A stretch of DNA of 63,812 nucleotides, counting the filler, from the NCBI GenBank assembly GCA_964501035.1. It is 4 parts of 4 records of this genome, joined end to end, with 100 filler letters (N's around TTAATTAATTAA, not from the genome) between each part and the next. Parts side by side here need not be neighbours in the genome. Positions count along the whole stretch, not along the records: positions 35,540 to 52,788 come from CAZCRK010000033.1; 3 more parts are not named here. One strand, 5' to 3'. Made by a program: the position numbers. Shown here piece after piece: positions 45,001-51,000 of this stretch (position 1 is its first letter; each line of letters begins with the position of its first letter).

Positions 45001-48000
45001 GTAACCGTAAATATTGATTTGTTACATGAATTTTTAGGTTATAAGGATGATTATTATATTCCAGACAATTCAAATGGGAGCGTGTATTTAGATACATTAG
45101 GTACTACTGAATATTCTTGGCGAGTTACAGCAATGAATTATTGGAGAGATGATTTAGAAAATGATCCTGAATATATATCTGTTTCTGACACATTAAATTT
45201 CTACATAGATTTAAAAGAACCCATTATTGATTACGCAATATTGCAAAATGAAGTATATTCAGAATATTATGATGTGTATATGCTAACAACTGAAGAAGTG
45301 ATTGCTGACTCAACAGATTTAATCATTGTAGATGAAAATGATGGTGTAAACAATCAAGAATTCAATTTAAACGCACCTCTTGAAACCAATATATATAGTA
45401 TTACCACTTCATTCCCAAGCGCAGGATTGTTTACTTATAATTTTGATGGGTGGGATCATGCGCGGAATAATTTCAATTCTACTCAAAAATTTGGTTTTCA
45501 ATATATTGCACCCAGTGAATTATCCCGATATTCTTCACCATCAGGTTTTGCAATTATAGAACTCATTTCACATGCAAACGAGAACCAACCCATTTTGATA
45601 TATGAATCTGAAATTGATTTATCCCTATCTCGTTCAAACTCTACTCAAGTGAGTCCAACGGTTTCAATTTTATACAAAAATACAGAATCAATGAGTGATG
45701 CCAAGGTTGAATTTGATTTAACTGTATTTTTAAATGAAGATATACCATATTGGCAATACCAAATCATGCAATTCATTGACGGTGAGTGGAGCGATATTGA
45801 ATCACAATATTCAGGCAATATATTGTCTGCAAATATTGATTCTTTTGGTGATTTTTCAGTGTGGGTAAATACTGATTTGCTCGAACCGTTACCCGAAGAA
45901 TTTTCAATTTTTCCATCATATCCAAATCCATTTAACCCAAGTTTAACTATTCCATATTCTTTACCTCATGATGGGAATGTAGAAATTATGGCTTACAATA
46001 TTTTGGGACAACATGTAGCGTCTATTTTGGATGGATTTCAAACTGCAGGGTATAAACAAATAATTTGGAATACAGAAGCCACGCCACATTTGAGTAGTGG
46101 TGTTTATTTTGTACAAATCAAATTTGACAATGTCCATTTAACACAAAAAGTGATGTTCTTAAAATGAGAATTCTGTTTCCCATATTAATACTGTTTTACT
46201 TTGGGTGTAGTAACCCCTTTACCGAATTAGAAGAACATTCAGGAATGTTTGAATATAAGTATTATATTCAACAAGGGTGGACTAAATTTGTCGAAAATGA
46301 ATTTGAAGATGCCATGGAATTATTTTCAATGTCATTAAACACAGATACAAACCAATATCTAAATTCTGCATATGTAGGACTTGCATGGTCATCTCTATAT
46401 CAAGCAAATTCATTACTTTCTTCAGACTCTGAGTTAATGAATACATTTCGAGAAGATTCAGAAACATATTTTGATAAATCTGCTATTGATACTTCAGAAG
46501 CATTAGCAGAATATGGTGAAAATTCATTCCAATTCGATAAAGATTTGATTGTAGGTCGATCCTATTATTATTCATTAATGTCATTTATCACAGATGAGAG
46601 TGAATATTTAGACTCAATTATTTTGAAAACGGATAGTATTATTGAGTTAGATCCTGATTATGCGTTCATAAATGGAGATAAACTTTCAGATACCCTTTAT
46701 TCGCAAATAAACATAGATTCATATCTAACCATTGATGATATTTACATCCTTCGAGCCCAAACATTTATTAAACAAGGTGATTTTGAATCCGCTAATTCAG
46801 CGTTAAAAGAATTACTCATCCCCGGTTGCACAGACTTAAATGATGACGACCATCAAGAAATCATAAATTGTATCGCTTCATTTTAGTTTAATTCCATATA
46901 CAAATTGTTACAGAATTTTACATTCAAACAGTTATGGATTAGATGTATAATTATACTGGTAATACCAAACGAATTAAGGATTTTATTATGAGATTTATAC
47001 TTTTTTTATTGATTTTCTCGCTTCCACTTCTTGCGGAAACAGATTTGCAAAAGGAACTTCCAATTGGACTTACTGAAGATGAATTGCAAAATTTACACAT
47101 TATCAATGAAATGGGTCGAGAAACTGATCCCCCTCAATATCCCGTTCGAAATATTGCAGAATTTGAACCCATGCAAGGTGTGTTGATTCGATATCCATTT
47201 GGTATCTCAACATCATTTATTAGAGAAATGGCTGAAGATGTAATCATTTATTGTTTAGTTTCATCTTCTCAACAAAATAGCGCATATAACTCAATGTCGA
47301 ATGCTGGGGTTGATATGAGCCAAGTTGAGTTTATTGTTGGTTCTACTGATAGTTATTGGACGCGTGATTATGGCCCATGGTGGGTAGTGGATGGCAATAA
47401 TGATGTATCCGTCGTTGATCATACATATAATAGACCTCGACCAAACGACAACCAAGCACCACAAAAGATGTCAGATTATTTATCAACACCCTATTTTGCA
47501 AGTGATATCATAACTGCAGGGGGTAATTACATGACTGATGGGTATACCATTGGTGCATCGAGTAATCTCATATATGAAGAAAATCCAGATTTAACAGATT
47601 CTCAAGTGAATCAAATTATGCTAGATTATTATGGAATTTCCAATTATATGGGCATAGATGACCCCAATAATACATACATTGACCATATTGATTGCTGGGG
47701 TAAGTTTTTGTCACCTAGTAAAGTATTAATTCGTTCTGTGCAAAATTCACATGCACAATATGATGAAATAGAAGAAGTGGCTGAGTTGTTTGCAAACAGT
47801 TTGAATACATTTGGTGAACCATGGGAAGTATTTCGTGTTTATACTCCACAAAACCAACCCTATTCCAATTCATTAATTTTAAACAAGAAGGTATTTGTGC
47901 CTATTATGAACAGTTCATACGATGACGATGCACTCGCATCTTATGAAGAAGCAATGCCAGGTTATGAAATCATTGGTGTTACGGGTTCATGGCAATCCAC

Positions 48001-51000
48001 AGATGCTTTGCATTGTAGAACAAAGGGCATTCCCGATTTAGAAATGCTTCAAATCTTTCATAATCCAATAAATGATCAAGACAATCCACAAGAAAATTTT
48101 GAAGTACAAGCAATTATTAATGATTTATCTCAAGCCGGACTTATATTCGATGAATTGAAAGTATTTTGGAAGAATCAAACAATGGACGATTATGAATCAA
48201 TTAATTTAGATTATTGTGTCGATGATATTCCTAATTGTTATGTTGCACTTCTTCCAAATCAAACTGAAGATGGAAATGTACAATACTTTATCCAAGCTAT
48301 TGATTTAACAGGCCGAGTTGAGAACCTTCCCATGGCAGGTTATTTTGACTTTGATGTAGTTGGAGGACTTCCCACTCAACAGGGTGATGTTAATCAAGAT
48401 TCTGCATTAAATGTATTAGATATTGTACAAATTGTGAACAATATTTTAGGTACCAATGAATTTTCAGAATATCAAATGCAGTTGGCGGATATGAATTCAG
48501 ATAATATTGTTAATATTCTTGACGTCATTTTACTTGTAAATATTATCATAGGAGATTAGTATGCTGAAATCTATAATTATCTTGATGTTAACACAAATAC
48601 TTTTTTCTGCTGAAGTGTTCAAGCAGATTCGCATTGAACCCATTGATGAAACCACCATTTCTACACTTCAATCTATAGGGATTGACTTAGACCATGTCTA
48701 TCAGAAAAAGGGTGTATTTATTGAATTTGCGGTATCAGAATCTGATATCACTCGTATCGAAGATAGAAATATTTCCTTTGAGGTAGTTCACGAGGATTTA
48801 CAGTCATTTTATGAGCATCGTTTAACTACGGATTATACTCGAGATTTTGGAACTGGTTCAATGGGTGGCTATTATACATTTGAGGAAATTGTTGACCATC
48901 TAAACGAACTGCATAACGATTATCCTAACTTAGTCAGTGAAATCCAATCGATAGGACAAACACTTGAAGGTCGAGAAATATGGTCTGTTAAACTTAGTGA
49001 TAACCCCAACGTAGATGAAGATGAACCCGAAATGCTGTATATTGGATTACATCATGCACGTGAGCCAATGAGTTATATGAATTTGTTTTATTATATGTAT
49101 TGGTTAACTGAAAACTATGGAACAGATCCCGAAGCAACTGCACTTCTTGAAAATAGAGAACTCTGGTTTATTCCAGCTATGAATCCAGACGGATTGGTGT
49201 ATAATCAACAAATTGCACCAAACGGTGGGGGTATGCAACGCAAAAACCATCGTGAAACCTGTTCGCAAGACTGGGATGGTATTGATCTAAACCGGAATTA
49301 CAGTTTTATGTGGGCATACGATGATGATGGTTCAAGTCCATACGGATGTGACCAAACCTATCGTGGAACCGAACCCTTTTCAGAACCCGAAACAGAAGCA
49401 GTCAAAAATTTTATTGAATCGCATGATTTCCCAATTATTTTATCCTATCATAGTTATGGAAATTTACTCATTCACCCATTTGGATACATACCTGGACTTT
49501 TACCTCCAGAACCCGATTTAACAATTTTCAGAGAGTATGGAAATGAAATGGTCAAATATAACCATTATTCAATGGGAACGGGTATTGAAACTGTGGGCTA
49601 TACTGTGAATGGAGAGGCAACTGACTATTATTATGGTGAATATGGAATTTATGCCTACACACCTGAAGTAGGTGCATATTATGATGGTTTTTGGCCATCA
49701 TCTGATCGGATACTTCCATTAGCAGAGGAAAATTTACACCCAAATCAATTTTCAGCATGGATGGTTGGTGCAGGTTATACTGCATCCCTTGAATATGATA
49801 ATGAATATTTTGAATTTGGTCAAACTTATTCGATTGATGTAAACATTTTTAATCAGGGGTTGGGTGAATCCAATGGAGATATTGATGTGAATATTTCTTC
49901 ACCATTACTTGATGAAGATTTGACATTTAACTTAAATCCCTTAAATGGTCGCCAATCGGCAGCAATTCCTATCGAGTTCAGCATATCAAATACATATCAA
50001 AATGGGGATATTGTGGATATTACTGTTTCGATGTCGGATAATACCAATTACACTTTTGAAAATGTCATATCCATCACCATTGGCGAGCCAGTGTTACTGT
50101 TTTCTGATGGTGCAGAATTTGGATTAGTAAATTGGGAGACCAATGCATGGGGAACAACATCCGATGCGTATAATGGAAATTCCGCATTTACGGATAGTCC
50201 ATTTGGAATATATGGTGCAAATGCAGTTAGTTATTTGCAATTAGCTGAACCCTTAAACTTATCAGATGTATCTACAGGATATATTTCTTATGCTGCAAAA
50301 TGGCAAATTGAAACCAGTTGGGATTGGGCACAAGTTGAAGTCTCCACGGATAATAATAATTGGATTCCCTTACAAGGTGAACTCATGAATGGGGGAACTG
50401 GTCAAGGAGTACAATTTACCGACGAGTATGGTTATGATGGAATTTCTGATTGGGTGACTGACCAGGTTTCCATTGCATCACTTGCAGGTGAGGAAACGGT
50501 ATGGTTTCGGTTTAGTTTGAGTTCCGATGGTGGAGTAGAACGTGATGGAATATACATTGACAATATCGGAGTATATGCCTATCAACAAACGGCACAAATT
50601 GGAGATATCAATACCGATGGAAATATAGATGTTTTGGATGTGGTACAAATGGTTCAAATTATTATAGGTGCAGCAAATCCAACTCCAGAGCAATTCAGCC
50701 TAGCAGATTTAAATACAGATAATACAATCAATGTACAAGATATTGTTCTTTTAGTGAATCTGATTATTGGATAAACCATTGGAAGTTTGAAGGGAGAAGT
50801 TTGAAGTGTGAAAAAAACTTCAATATCCAAATCCAANNNNNNNNNNNNNNNNNNNNNNNNNNNNNNNNNNNNNNNNNNNNNNNNNNNNNNNNNNNNNNNN
50901 NNNNNNNNNNNNNNNNNNNNNNNNNNNNNNNNNNNNAGAAGTGTGAAGTTTGAAATGAGAAACAACTCCACTTTTAACTTTTCACTTTATCAACTTTCAA

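Follow-up and report, generated by a model that had tools for sequence, protein, structure and literature searches.

Does a free-living marine bacterium encode a counterpart of the peptidylarginine deiminase of Porphyromonas gingivalis (PPAD), and what would such an enzyme do there? The activity of PPAD is the calcium-independent deimination of C-terminal peptidyl-arginine. The gene that raises this question belongs to a marine Marinimicrobia (SAR406 / Fidelibacterota) bacterium and lies on contig C33 in the window, i.e. the whole stretch of 63,812 nucleotides analysed, in which N spacers link several contigs. The features of the locus are as follows.

36895..46167, + strand, giant surface protein of 3090 aa with repeats of the LTD, PKD, cadherin-like and Big_9 types and a C-terminal T9SS sorting domain
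46164..46886, + strand, small upstream gene, 240 aa, lipoprotein-like (N-terminus ...LFYFGC; sequence and Pfam)
46943..48559, + strand, PPAD-type deiminase ORF, 538 aa as listed, intact
46988..47035, + strand, Sec-type signal peptide, residues 16-31, MRFILFLLIFSLPLLA followed by ETD, read from sequence
47117..48043, + strand, catalytic deiminase domain, residues 59-367, five-bladed alpha/beta propeller (Pfam, PDB alignment, motifs and model)
48044..48358, + strand, Ig-like beta-sandwich, residues 368-472, counterpart of the PPAD IgLF (PDB alignment and model)
48383..48553, + strand, type I dockerin, residues 481-537 (Pfam Dockerin_1, two calcium-loop motifs and three predicted helices)
48561..50774, + strand, M14 carboxypeptidase with InhA-like MAM domain and dockerin, 737 aa (Pfam), one base after the deiminase ORF
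51114..52547, + strand, secreted protein of unassigned family, 477 aa, with C-terminal dockerin (Pfam)

Architecture and active site of the deiminase

The translation of the deiminase ORF has no internal stop, and the gene is touched by neither of the two 100-N masked stretches of C33 (window 41041-41140 and 50837-50936). It is the only PAD_porph gene in the genome. The true start is probably the second ATG at 46988 (M16), leaving 523 aa, because it is preceded by AAGGA at a distance of 7 nt and close homologues have lengths of 516-527 aa. The signal peptide was assigned by inspection of the sequence, and a helix spanning this region (residues 8-31) is predicted in the AlphaFold2 model.

Pfam PAD_porph matched residues 92-364 with an E-value of 7.9e-29 (101 bits versus a cut-off of 25). 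The best matches in a PDB sequence search were the PPAD entries 6i0x, 4yt9/4ytb, 4ytg, 5ak7 and 5ak8 (E 1.3e-103 to 1.5e-98), with residues 59-467 of the deiminase aligned to chain residues 3-411 of PPAD at 351 bits and an identity to PPAD of 38-40%. The next match was 1xkn (E 2.3e-11; 47 bits for the next family), and agmatine deiminase structures scored 24-47 bits. The AlphaFold2 model has a pLDDT of 93.3, and strands are predicted across residues 369-472, up to residue 467 of which the PDB alignment extends. Foldseek comparison of the model with 6i0x, 4ytb and 5ak7 gave TM (target) values of 0.92-0.93 and rmsd values of 1.9-2.1 over 423-427 columns, the PPAD chains being ~420 residues long with ~425 columns aligned; the TM values against agmatine deiminases were 0.72-0.80.

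The motifs YWTRDY, YNRPRPND, IDHIDCWGK and TDALHCRT are located at positions 138, 162, 246 and 353, respectively, and the motif spacing matches the PPAD numbering for all 11 named residues. The roles of the PPAD catalytic pentad (Asp130, His236, Asp238, Asn297 and Cys351) have been described (PMC4893104), and it is present here as D142, H248, D250, N309 and C358. In PPAD, Arg152, Arg154 and Tyr233 bind the free carboxylate at the C-terminus of a substrate, and Trp127 and Ile234 form a hydrophobic wall (PMC4893104, PMC4487231). The former three correspond to R164, R166 and Y245 (Tyr233 being part of the Michaelis loop), and the latter two to W139 and I246. The presence of both PPAD domains and of all catalytic and carboxylate-binding residues, together with a TM value of 0.93 versus 0.72-0.80, supports placing the protein, by its predicted architecture, among the true PPAD-type enzymes and outside the agmatine deiminases. 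The 538-aa ORF with its signal peptide, the PPAD match (same PDB entries, E range and aligned span, with 1xkn next), the four motifs and the distance from agmatine deiminases had all been reported in an earlier note on this DNA, and our results agree with it on each of these points.

Distribution and conservation of the PPAD-type family

Passages in reviews of 2026 and 2025 and in a 2015 structure paper (PMC4487231) present PPAD either as unique or as an enzyme that only P. gingivalis, P. gulae and P. loveana possess, and the earlier note had likewise treated the enzyme as rare. At E <= 1e-30 the PPAD-type family comprises 592 clusters. Members with both domains make up no fewer than 150 clusters at 50% identity, and species-representative genomes contain at least 598 loci. 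Its members were found in 114 of 401 sampled Bacteroidales and in 79 of 251 sampled genomes of the phylum Marinimicrobia, as well as in Bacteroidota, Cloacimonadota, Eisenbacteria, Armatimonadota and Thermoplasmatota MAGs. By these sequence counts, the PPAD-type enzyme is common among environmental bacteria and not unique to P. gingivalis. Restriction to the order of the host, previously deduced from 0 of 36 genomes outside it, does not hold either: in the 251-genome sample, full-length matches at E <= 1e-110 were obtained in 33 of 221 genomes outside the order. Within the order, 55 of 57 genomes from four families carry the deiminase as a conserved single copy.

The designation as a true orthologue is not supported either. 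The Bacteroidales T9SS forms of ~570 aa score 373 and 400 bits against PPAD, compared with 351 bits for the Marinimicrobia deiminase. The family tree left out the sequence of PPAD itself, and these ~570-aa forms served as its proxy; they fall in one main clade, and the Marinimicrobia proteins form a clade of their own in the other. Judged from these scores and this tree, the Marinimicrobia deiminase is probably not the nearest relative of PPAD. In sum, the PPAD-type assignment, the dockerin, the M14 neighbour and the RgpB-like peptidases of the earlier interpretation stand; rarity and order restriction do not, and true orthology lacks support.

The catalytic and Ig-like region of the wider family is 42-66% identical to the deiminase, with the same signature residues. 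Each of R152, R154 and Y233 (PPAD numbering) is conserved in 102 of the 103 rows of the core family, and the range is 100-103 of 103 when W127 and I234 are included. When the query is counted with the best 150 clusters (151 rows), 149 rows have R152, 148 have R154, 131 have Y233 and all 151 have C351; divergent paralogues have T/-/L, T/F/D, S/N/G, R/L/S or R/R/G at R152/R154/Y233. Some relatives of ~430 aa are without the Ig-like domain, which is thus not essential across the family. The C-termini also vary: 24 of 50 sampled members have Por_Secre_tail and 4 more only FlgD_ig or CHU_C, and dockerins are scarce outside the Marinimicrobia phylum (7 of 150 clusters). The wider FCB-group family is uncharacterised and appears in databases as "agmatine deiminase family protein"; it differs from the Marinimicrobia deiminase in that most members have a T9SS tail and some are fused to C25 peptidases.

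Dockerin, neighbouring genes and gingipain-type peptidases

Pfam found no Por_Secre_tail or other T9SS sorting domain on the deiminase, the C-terminus of which is a Dockerin_1 match (residues 481-534; 32.5 bits versus a cut-off of 22.9); this departure from PPAD lies in the sorting module, not in the enzyme itself. Its E-value was 1e-7, where 7e-9 had been given earlier for the same placement. The two calcium-loop motifs (D-x-N-x-D-x6-D) are DVNQDSALNVLD at 482 and DMNSDNIVNILD at 516, and helices are predicted at 491-501, 509-515 and 525-536 in the AlphaFold2 model. The genome has 65 dockerin ORFs, mainly peptidases, nucleases and phosphatases besides the deiminase, with hardly any glycoside hydrolases, and the dockerin is the usual, generic export tag of this organism. 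Cohesin domains occur in three ORFs, one of which (254 aa) consists of a signal peptide, a cohesin and Por_Secre_tail; within the order, 68 of 74 genomes have cohesin. The genome also encodes an SprA-like T9SS translocon and two secretins, the latter of which may provide an ordinary route across the outer membrane for a protein carrying only a dockerin. None of the papers searched describes a dockerin-cohesin system for a phylum that is diderm and has a T9SS.

The nearest solved relative of the dockerin-bearing M14 protein, already noted as the neighbour of the deiminase, is carboxypeptidase T. Of 40 related loci in the clade of the phylum, 17 have an M14 gene as the immediate downstream neighbour, as do two Cloacimonadota loci (L076 and L094); none was found downstream in the other 23 of the 40, where some contigs stop at the deiminase gene. 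A homologue of the 240-aa gene, which has a weak TPR match under the Pfam cut-off, is directly upstream in 18 of the 40. The gene for the giant 3090-aa protein has a 4-base overlap with this small gene and is broken by a 100-N masked stretch.

The genome has seven Peptidase_C25 genes, six of them with a dockerin. As stated previously, relatives of Arg-gingipain are among them. The protein at C2:45036-49238 scores 319 bits against RgpB (1cvr; E 3.8e-94), 127 bits against the prodomain of RgpB and just 56 bits against Kgp, and it ends in Por_Secre_tail; that at C17:18163-21462 has C25, propeptide and dockerin. One C25 peptidase of the genome aligned to RgpB keeps H211, C244 and D163. C25 peptidases occur in 226 of the 251 sampled genomes of the phylum, and their co-occurrence with the deiminase thus carries little information. 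An N-terminal C25 peptidase is fused to a C-terminal PPAD-like region in 14 of the best 150 family clusters, from several sources including a Cloacimonadota MAG, and Pfam confirmed the fusion in P0171 and P0201. These predicted fusions lend new support to a gingipain-PPAD pairing, and the downstream M14 gene is conserved as well.

PPAD (4YT9, 4YTB, 4YTG, 5AK7, 5AK8 and 6I0X) and the Marinimicrobia deiminase thus have in common the signal peptide, the five-bladed propeller, the Ig-like domain, the D/H/D/N/C pentad and the carboxylate-binding R-x-R and Tyr, and both organisms carry RgpB-type C25 peptidases. They differ in that PPAD has a T9SS C-terminal domain in place of the type I dockerin, and in that the Marinimicrobia gene, which encodes a predicted deiminase, is in an operon with an M14 carboxypeptidase, in a free-living marine host of another phylum and in a clade apart from the Bacteroidales forms scoring closest to PPAD.

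Proposed function and alternatives

We lean towards reading the gene product as a peptidyl-arginine deiminase of the PPAD type that is exported and acts as follows. The signal peptide would direct the protein across the inner membrane, and its type I dockerin would tether it to cohesin-bearing surface proteins, one of them itself T9SS cargo. In the propeller, the arginine side chain would be held between D142 and D250, and C358 would attack the guanidinium carbon with the assistance of H248 and N309, so that ammonia leaves and citrulline is formed. R164, R166 and Y245 would clamp the free alpha-carboxylate, which suggests that the preferred substrate is the C-terminal Arg of a peptide or free arginine, not an internal Arg or agmatine. 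RgpB-like C25 peptidases of the organism would generate C-terminal arginines outside the cell, and the co-transcribed M14 carboxypeptidase would next act on the same peptide ends. The purpose would be nutritional: as the cell scavenges protein, ammonia would be released and charge removed.

PPAD acts on free arginine too, and an extracellular enzyme that harvests ammonia or makes citrulline from dissolved L-arginine is an unlikely alternative. The site recognises a guanidinium group and a free alpha-carboxylate, both present on free arginine, and sequence does not distinguish this substrate from a C-terminal arginine with the same carboxylate. The conserved carboxypeptidase operon and the endopeptidase fusions nevertheless point to peptides. 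Dipeptides occupy the active site in PPAD crystals (PMC4487231), and the two activities can coexist. Somewhat less probable is the citrullination of C-termini left by maturation on the organism's own surface or secreted proteins, with a role in surface assembly or vesicles. Such a role is discussed for PPAD, the activity of which is reported to promote vesicle biogenesis in P. gingivalis (PMC7847538), and the gene at this locus comes directly after that of a 3090-aa T9SS surface protein. The conserved partners are the lipoprotein-like gene and the M14 carboxypeptidase, and hydrolases dominate the dockerin set.

An agmatine deiminase of putrescine/polyamine metabolism is very improbable, even though Pfam PAD_porph spans both enzyme types, NCBI and JGI name the relatives accordingly and the genome has no second PAD_porph gene. 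Agmatine deiminases (AguA; 2JER, 3HVM, 6NIB, 1VKP and others) share the superfamily fold and the catalytic Cys/His/Asp/Asp/Asn but are cytoplasmic, single-domain and without the carboxylate-binding arginines, whereas this protein carries a signal peptide, a dockerin and the extra Ig-like domain of PPAD, scores far better against PPAD in both sequence and fold, and keeps R164, R166 and Y245 although agmatine has no carboxylate. There is hardly any case for an inactive or binding-only relic: D238N or D130N occurs in some tandem second copies of related genomes, but the Marinimicrobia copy keeps every catalytic residue and is the conserved single copy described above.

Beyond the preferred deiminase reading, we tentatively suggest, as a possibility we would not rate as probable, a surface complex for protein digestion in Marinimicrobia on T9SS-cargo cohesin scaffolds. 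RgpB-like peptidases, the deiminase, carboxypeptidases, nucleases and phosphatases would be docked together by the common dockerin tag, and peptides would be cut after arginine, then deiminated and trimmed at one site. If so, the pairing of gingipain and PPAD, which is known only from an oral pathogen and there as a virulence trait, would represent an ancient nutritional module in the FCB group that lineages have wired in three ways: as separate T9SS cargos, as a single-polypeptide fusion and by co-assembly through dockerins. More boldly, enzymes that have just a dockerin would exit bound to the cohesin protein bearing the T9SS signal. The same two-domain enzyme, clamp residues included, is widespread among environmental Bacteroidales, Cloacimonadota and Marinimicrobia and is repeatedly tied to gingipain-type peptidases, even as one fused protein; the C-terminal-arginine specificity of PPAD therefore looks like an ancestral trait that belongs to extracellular protein scavenging and did not arise by adaptation to humans as hosts. 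With its many natural variants, the family lends itself to the study of the enzyme mechanism, and an abundant deep-ocean heterotroph would free ammonia from peptide-bound arginine outside the cell.

The cellulosome of Clostridia is similar in having C-terminal type I dockerins with two calcium loops on secreted hydrolases and cohesin scaffold proteins in the same genome. The putative Marinimicrobia system differs in its diderm host and its T9SS anchoring of one cohesin protein in place of SLH/sortase, and its cargo is mostly peptidases, nucleases, phosphatases and the deiminase, with few glycoside hydrolases.

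Sequence and structural likeness to PPAD

The putative deiminase gene lies on contig C33 of the Marinimicrobia (now Fidelibacterota) genome (1.87 Mb, 167 contigs, 95.7% complete). ORF listing and translation confirmed that it is intact, as the earlier note had stated, with an uninterrupted frame of 538 codons for amino acids at 46943-48559 (+). Translation probably does not begin at the first ATG; the ATG of M16 at 46988 is preferred because AAGGA sits 7 nt before it and because close homologues are 516–527 aa long. From M16, the N-terminus reads MRFILFLLIFSLPLLA, a typical Sec signal, and continues with ETD. 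Pfam assigned residues 92–364 to PAD_porph (101 bits), a family that includes agmatine deiminases, and residues 481–534 to Dockerin_1 (32.5 bits), and found no T9SS domain in the protein. Two D-x-N-x-D-x6-D loops are recognisable in the dockerin, for which three helices are predicted. DNA matching this stretch occurs in seawater and brine metagenomes, and no RNA data set was listed for it. The joins at 17897-17996, 35440-35539 and 52789-52888 are N spacers flanking a 12-base filler that is also present in contig C94, and adjacency across the joins of C31, C32, C33 and C55 is not genomic.

The strong resemblance to the peptidylarginine deiminase of Porphyromonas gingivalis (PPAD) described earlier was reproduced at equal strength: five distinct PPAD chains matched residues 59–467 in a PDB sequence search (E 1.3e-103 to 1.5e-98), and the next family was 1xkn (E 2.3e-11). 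The catalytic residues of PPAD are Asp130, His236, Asp238, Asn297 and Cys351, its ligands of the C-terminal carboxylate are Arg152, Arg154 and Tyr233, and its pocket wall is formed by Trp127 and Ile234 (PMC4893104; PMC4487231). Their counterparts in the window protein are W139, D142, R164, R166, Y245, I246, H248, D250, N309 and C358, and the residue spacings match those of PPAD exactly, given two small alignment gaps. An inactive relic was considered and rejected, since counterparts of all five catalytic residues are kept.

The AlphaFold2 model, calculated from an alignment of 73 rows, had a mean pLDDT of 93.3 and a pTM of 0.83. The top Foldseek matches were seven PPAD chains (E 2.7e-55 to 2.3e-53, target TM 0.92–0.93, rmsd 1.9–2.1 Å over 423–427 columns), and the aligned span takes in the propeller as well as the Ig-like domain. 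Next came the agmatine deiminases, with E values of ~1e-21 to 1e-18 and TM scores of 0.72–0.80. An assignment to that group was considered and rejected on the sequence and TM scores, the export signal and dockerin, the Ig-like domain and the kept carboxylate-binding residues. The published PPAD variant G231N/E232T/N235D (PDB 6i0x) is defined by three positions, and the window protein has N, T and D there (residues 243, 244 and 247; nt 47669-47674 and 47681-47683). In an alignment of 151 rows (the window protein and its 150 best clusters), T (57 rows) and D (53 rows) are the most frequent residues at the second and third of these positions, and at the first, G (69 rows) exceeds N (51 rows).

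Distribution and phylogeny of the family

A library of 1.84 billion cluster representatives was searched with the 409-residue catalytic plus Ig-like region. Matching clusters numbered 2740 at E <= 1e-3 and 592 at the stricter threshold of E <= 1e-30. Scores of the top 150 lay between 339 and 564 bits, nearly all of these clusters spanned the entire query, and their host proteins ranged from 255 to 2395 aa. Across the 151 rows (PPAD numbering), C351, H236 and N297 are invariant, and D238 (150 rows), R152 (149), D130 and R154 (148 each), W127 (146) and Y233 (131) are kept in most. A pattern scan of species-representative genomes yielded at least 602 stretches, at least 598 of them confirmed as relatives. 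The best 80 of these share 48–74% identity, and the MAG titles among them name Neomarinimicrobiota, Cloacimonadota, Bacteroidales, Sphingobacteriia, Lentimicrobiaceae, Winogradskyella, Eisenbacteria, Armatimonadota and Thermoplasmatota. Where public records name the relatives, they use "agmatine deiminase family protein" or "agmatine/peptidylarginine deiminase".

Within the order of the window genome, 57 of 74 genomes have a match (55 of 57 genomes in four families, 1 of 16 in a fifth). The earlier note had reported matches in none of 36 sampled genomes outside this order, a restriction that is not upheld. In an even sample of the phylum, 79 of 251 genomes match at E <= 1e-30 (63 of 167 high-quality genomes), and 33 of the 221 sampled genomes outside the order match at E <= 1e-110. 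In an even sample of Bacteroidales, the order of one of the titled MAGs, 114 of 401 match at E <= 1e-60. Likewise, the view of a lone PPAD orthologue gives way to one member of a large unrecognised family. The novelty of the window protein lies in its sorting module and genomic setting.

The place of the protein in this family was examined with two quick maximum-likelihood searches that include some long branches. In the first tree (IQ-TREE LG+C20, SH-aLRT support only, 111 rows), the core family comprised 103 rows (support 99), and within it every Fidelibacterota-titled row grouped with the window protein in a single 46-row clade (support 98). PPAD itself is not among the 150 cluster representatives listed. 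Two 556-aa representatives, P0247 and P0270, were considered as PPAD and rejected at 314 and 352 bits against PPAD chains. The 401-genome Bacteroidales sample contains no visible PPAD-bearing Porphyromonas, and PPAD was represented in the second tree by proxies only, namely ~570-aa Bacteroidales genes with T9SS-like tails; none of the 20 fetched has the N-terminal motif of PPAD. None of the 19 retained proxies fell in the Marinimicrobia clade of this 127-row tree (46 tips, support 99); they grouped with Bacteroidota, Cloacimonadota, Thermoplasmatota and fused forms (73 tips, support 99). Two proxies reach 373 and 400 bits against PPAD chains, compared with 351 for the window protein. The tree placement and these scores indicate that the window protein is, by sequence, a full member of the PPAD-type family and that, with PPAD compared through proxies, it is not PPAD's nearest relative. 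Of the "true orthologue" proposed in the earlier note, family membership therefore stands, closest kinship does not, and orthology in the strict sense is not supported by these trees.

Of the 103 core-family rows, 102 have R152, and the same count applies to R154 and to Y233. In divergent dockerin-bearing paralogues of the same phylum, these positions are T/-/L (390-aa form), T/F/D (446-aa form), R/L/S (616 aa), S/N/G (532 aa) and R/R/G (~445-aa class). Because it is kept in the core and altered in these paralogues, the predicted carboxylate clamp is a signature of the core family, and the window protein has it. Divergent PAD_porph paralogues of the 616-, 448- and 390-aa classes (L151:360-2207, L153:318-1661, L154:289-1458) also end in dockerins, so the phylum may possess several kinds of secreted guanidino-modifying enzymes; this genome may have no cytoplasmic agmatine deiminase.

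Two further variants were observed. In two families of the order, second copies lie near or beside the main gene (L150:406-1938, L146:2054-3610 and L149:430-1920, in genomes G055, G049 and G047). In these copies, aspartates that anchor the guanidinium are changed (D238N or D130N) and I234 is replaced by H; they may be inactive or changed in specificity. In relatives of ~430 aa (L046:1026-2327, L051:3869-5152; genera g8, g11 and g13 of the order), the catalytic domain runs straight into the dockerin with no Ig-like domain between them; failure to express the PPAD catalytic domain alone has been reported.

C25 fusions and neighbouring genes

Domain architectures were examined by Pfam for every third of the 150 clusters (n = 50). 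Por_Secre_tail, the T9SS sorting domain, ends the protein in 24, FlgD_ig or CHU_C alone occurs in 4 more, and a dockerin occurs in 2. Two of the 50 entries are full fusions of a C25 propeptide, C25 (gingipain-type) peptidase, C25 Ig-like domain and PAD_porph. Using the C25 domains of this genome as phmmer queries, we found a C25 region preceding the PPAD-like region in 14 of the 150 clusters (P0161, P0171, P0180, P0182, P0190, P0197, P0199, P0201, P0202, P0215, P0218, P0256, P0265 and P0266), and a jackhmmer profile found dockerins in 7 of the 150. The fusion proteins were drawn from JGI, ENA, NCBI and Logan assemblies; their sources include one Cloacimonadota MAG, and one cluster includes a Thermoplasmata MAG fragment. 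They occupy at least two places in the trees. Their union in single proteins is the strongest sequence-level argument that the gingipain-type endopeptidase and the deiminase would act on the same substrates.

Relatives of Arg-gingipain, also claimed previously, were found in the genome. The C25 protein at C2:45036-49238 reaches 319 bits against RgpB (1cvr), in an alignment that spans its catalytic and Ig-like parts, compared with 56 bits for Kgp. The RgpB prodomain matches with 127 bits. H211, C244 and D163 are kept in the RgpB alignment; D163 has a role in S1. Six of the seven C25 genes of the genome bear dockerins. Co-occurrence of C25 and deiminase in the phylum is uninformative by itself, since C25 peptidases are near-universal there (226 of 251 genomes); they have already been recorded in Marinimicrobia and Cloacimonetes MAGs (PMC8359207).

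The large upstream neighbour and examples of dockerin-bearing ORFs in the window are as follows.
3028-6291 (-), dockerin-bearing ORF
6395-8389 (+), dockerin-bearing ORF
36895-46167 (+), repeat-rich surface protein of 3090 aa with a T9SS tail
48561-50774 (+), dockerin-bearing ORF
51114-52547 (+), dockerin-bearing ORF

The 3090-aa ORF overlaps a gene for a 240-aa lipoprotein-like protein by 4 bases, and a 56-nt gap separates the latter from the deiminase gene. The 3090-aa protein has long, near-identical internal repeats and a 100-N masked stretch at 41041-41140; its length and repeat number may be unreliable. On the other side, a gene for an M14 carboxypeptidase with a MAM domain and a dockerin starts one base past the deiminase gene, in agreement with the adjacency noted before; its nearest solved relative is carboxypeptidase T (185 bits). 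The Marinimicrobia clade accounts for 40 of the 80 loci taken from species-representative genomes. In 17 of these 40, the next gene downstream is an M14 gene in the same orientation, and 18 have the small upstream gene; some of the other loci are on contigs that stop at the deiminase gene. Outside the clade, M14 occurs within ~200 nt downstream in two Cloacimonadota loci (L076, L094).

Dockerin-cohesin setting and predicted role

A jackhmmer profile seeded with the dockerin of the window protein detected 65 dockerin-bearing ORFs in the genome, a very high density for a small diderm genome. Pfam was run on 60 of these. Peptidases account for 16 (six C25, four S8, two M14, and one each of C10, M6, M1 and trypsin-like); the other cargo includes nucleases, a metallophosphatase, arylsulfotransferase-like proteins, a PNGase-F-like protein and CotH, and glycoside hydrolases are almost absent. 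In 10 of the 60, the dockerin is followed by Por_Secre_tail. Cohesin domains are present in three ORFs of the genome.
C29:10171-10932 (= L097:1399-2160), cohesin ORF
C9:2-6577, cohesin ORF
C52:3091-4722, cohesin ORF

One cohesin protein exceeds 2192 aa and has two cohesins in an ORF cut by the contig end, another combines a cohesin with LRR repeats and a dockerin, and a third, of 254 aa, consists of a signal peptide, a cohesin and Por_Secre_tail. Within the order, cohesins were found in 68 of 74 genomes, in many cases in ORFs of ~245–272 aa. An SprA-like translocon and two secretin genes are present in this genome; the GldM profile TIGR03517 matched neither it nor the control genomes. Predicted complexes of the dockerin (residues 474–538) with the cohesin of the 254-aa protein, run without controls, scored 0.40, 0.30 and 0.29, on both sides of the 0.32 mark, and speak neither for nor against binding. 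PPAD has a direct T9SS anchor, whereas the window protein has a dockerin that is putatively held by cohesin proteins. On these sequence features, the simplest interpretation is indirect anchoring: in place of the direct anchor, the enzyme would use its dockerin to attach to cohesin proteins that are themselves T9SS cargo.

PPAD is called unique among microbes in a 2015 structure paper. According to a 2025 review, a 2018 study added P. gulae and P. loveana as bearers, and a 2026 review gives the same picture (P. gingivalis, P. gulae and P. loveana). A 2021 paper derives the "PADs" of centipede venom from bacterial donors, with two specificity residues changed there. A wide spread of the PPAD-type family is thus already hinted at in print. 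Among the matches listed in a search for environmental PPAD homologues, there were only papers on T9SS and P. gingivalis. The literature searched yielded no description of the dockerin variant, the C25 fusions or the M14 linkage, and no publication that mentions dockerins or cohesins together with a name of this phylum.

The most likely function predicted for the window protein is deimination of C-terminal arginines, or of free arginine, outside the cell, and the enzyme most likely works within a docked set of protein-degrading enzymes. Two dockerin proteins of the genome, at C1:71161-72738 and C4:56356-58626, have a Kunitz/BPTI inhibitor domain and a thyroglobulin type-1 repeat, which are unusual in bacteria; these may be peptidase inhibitors docked next to the peptidases.
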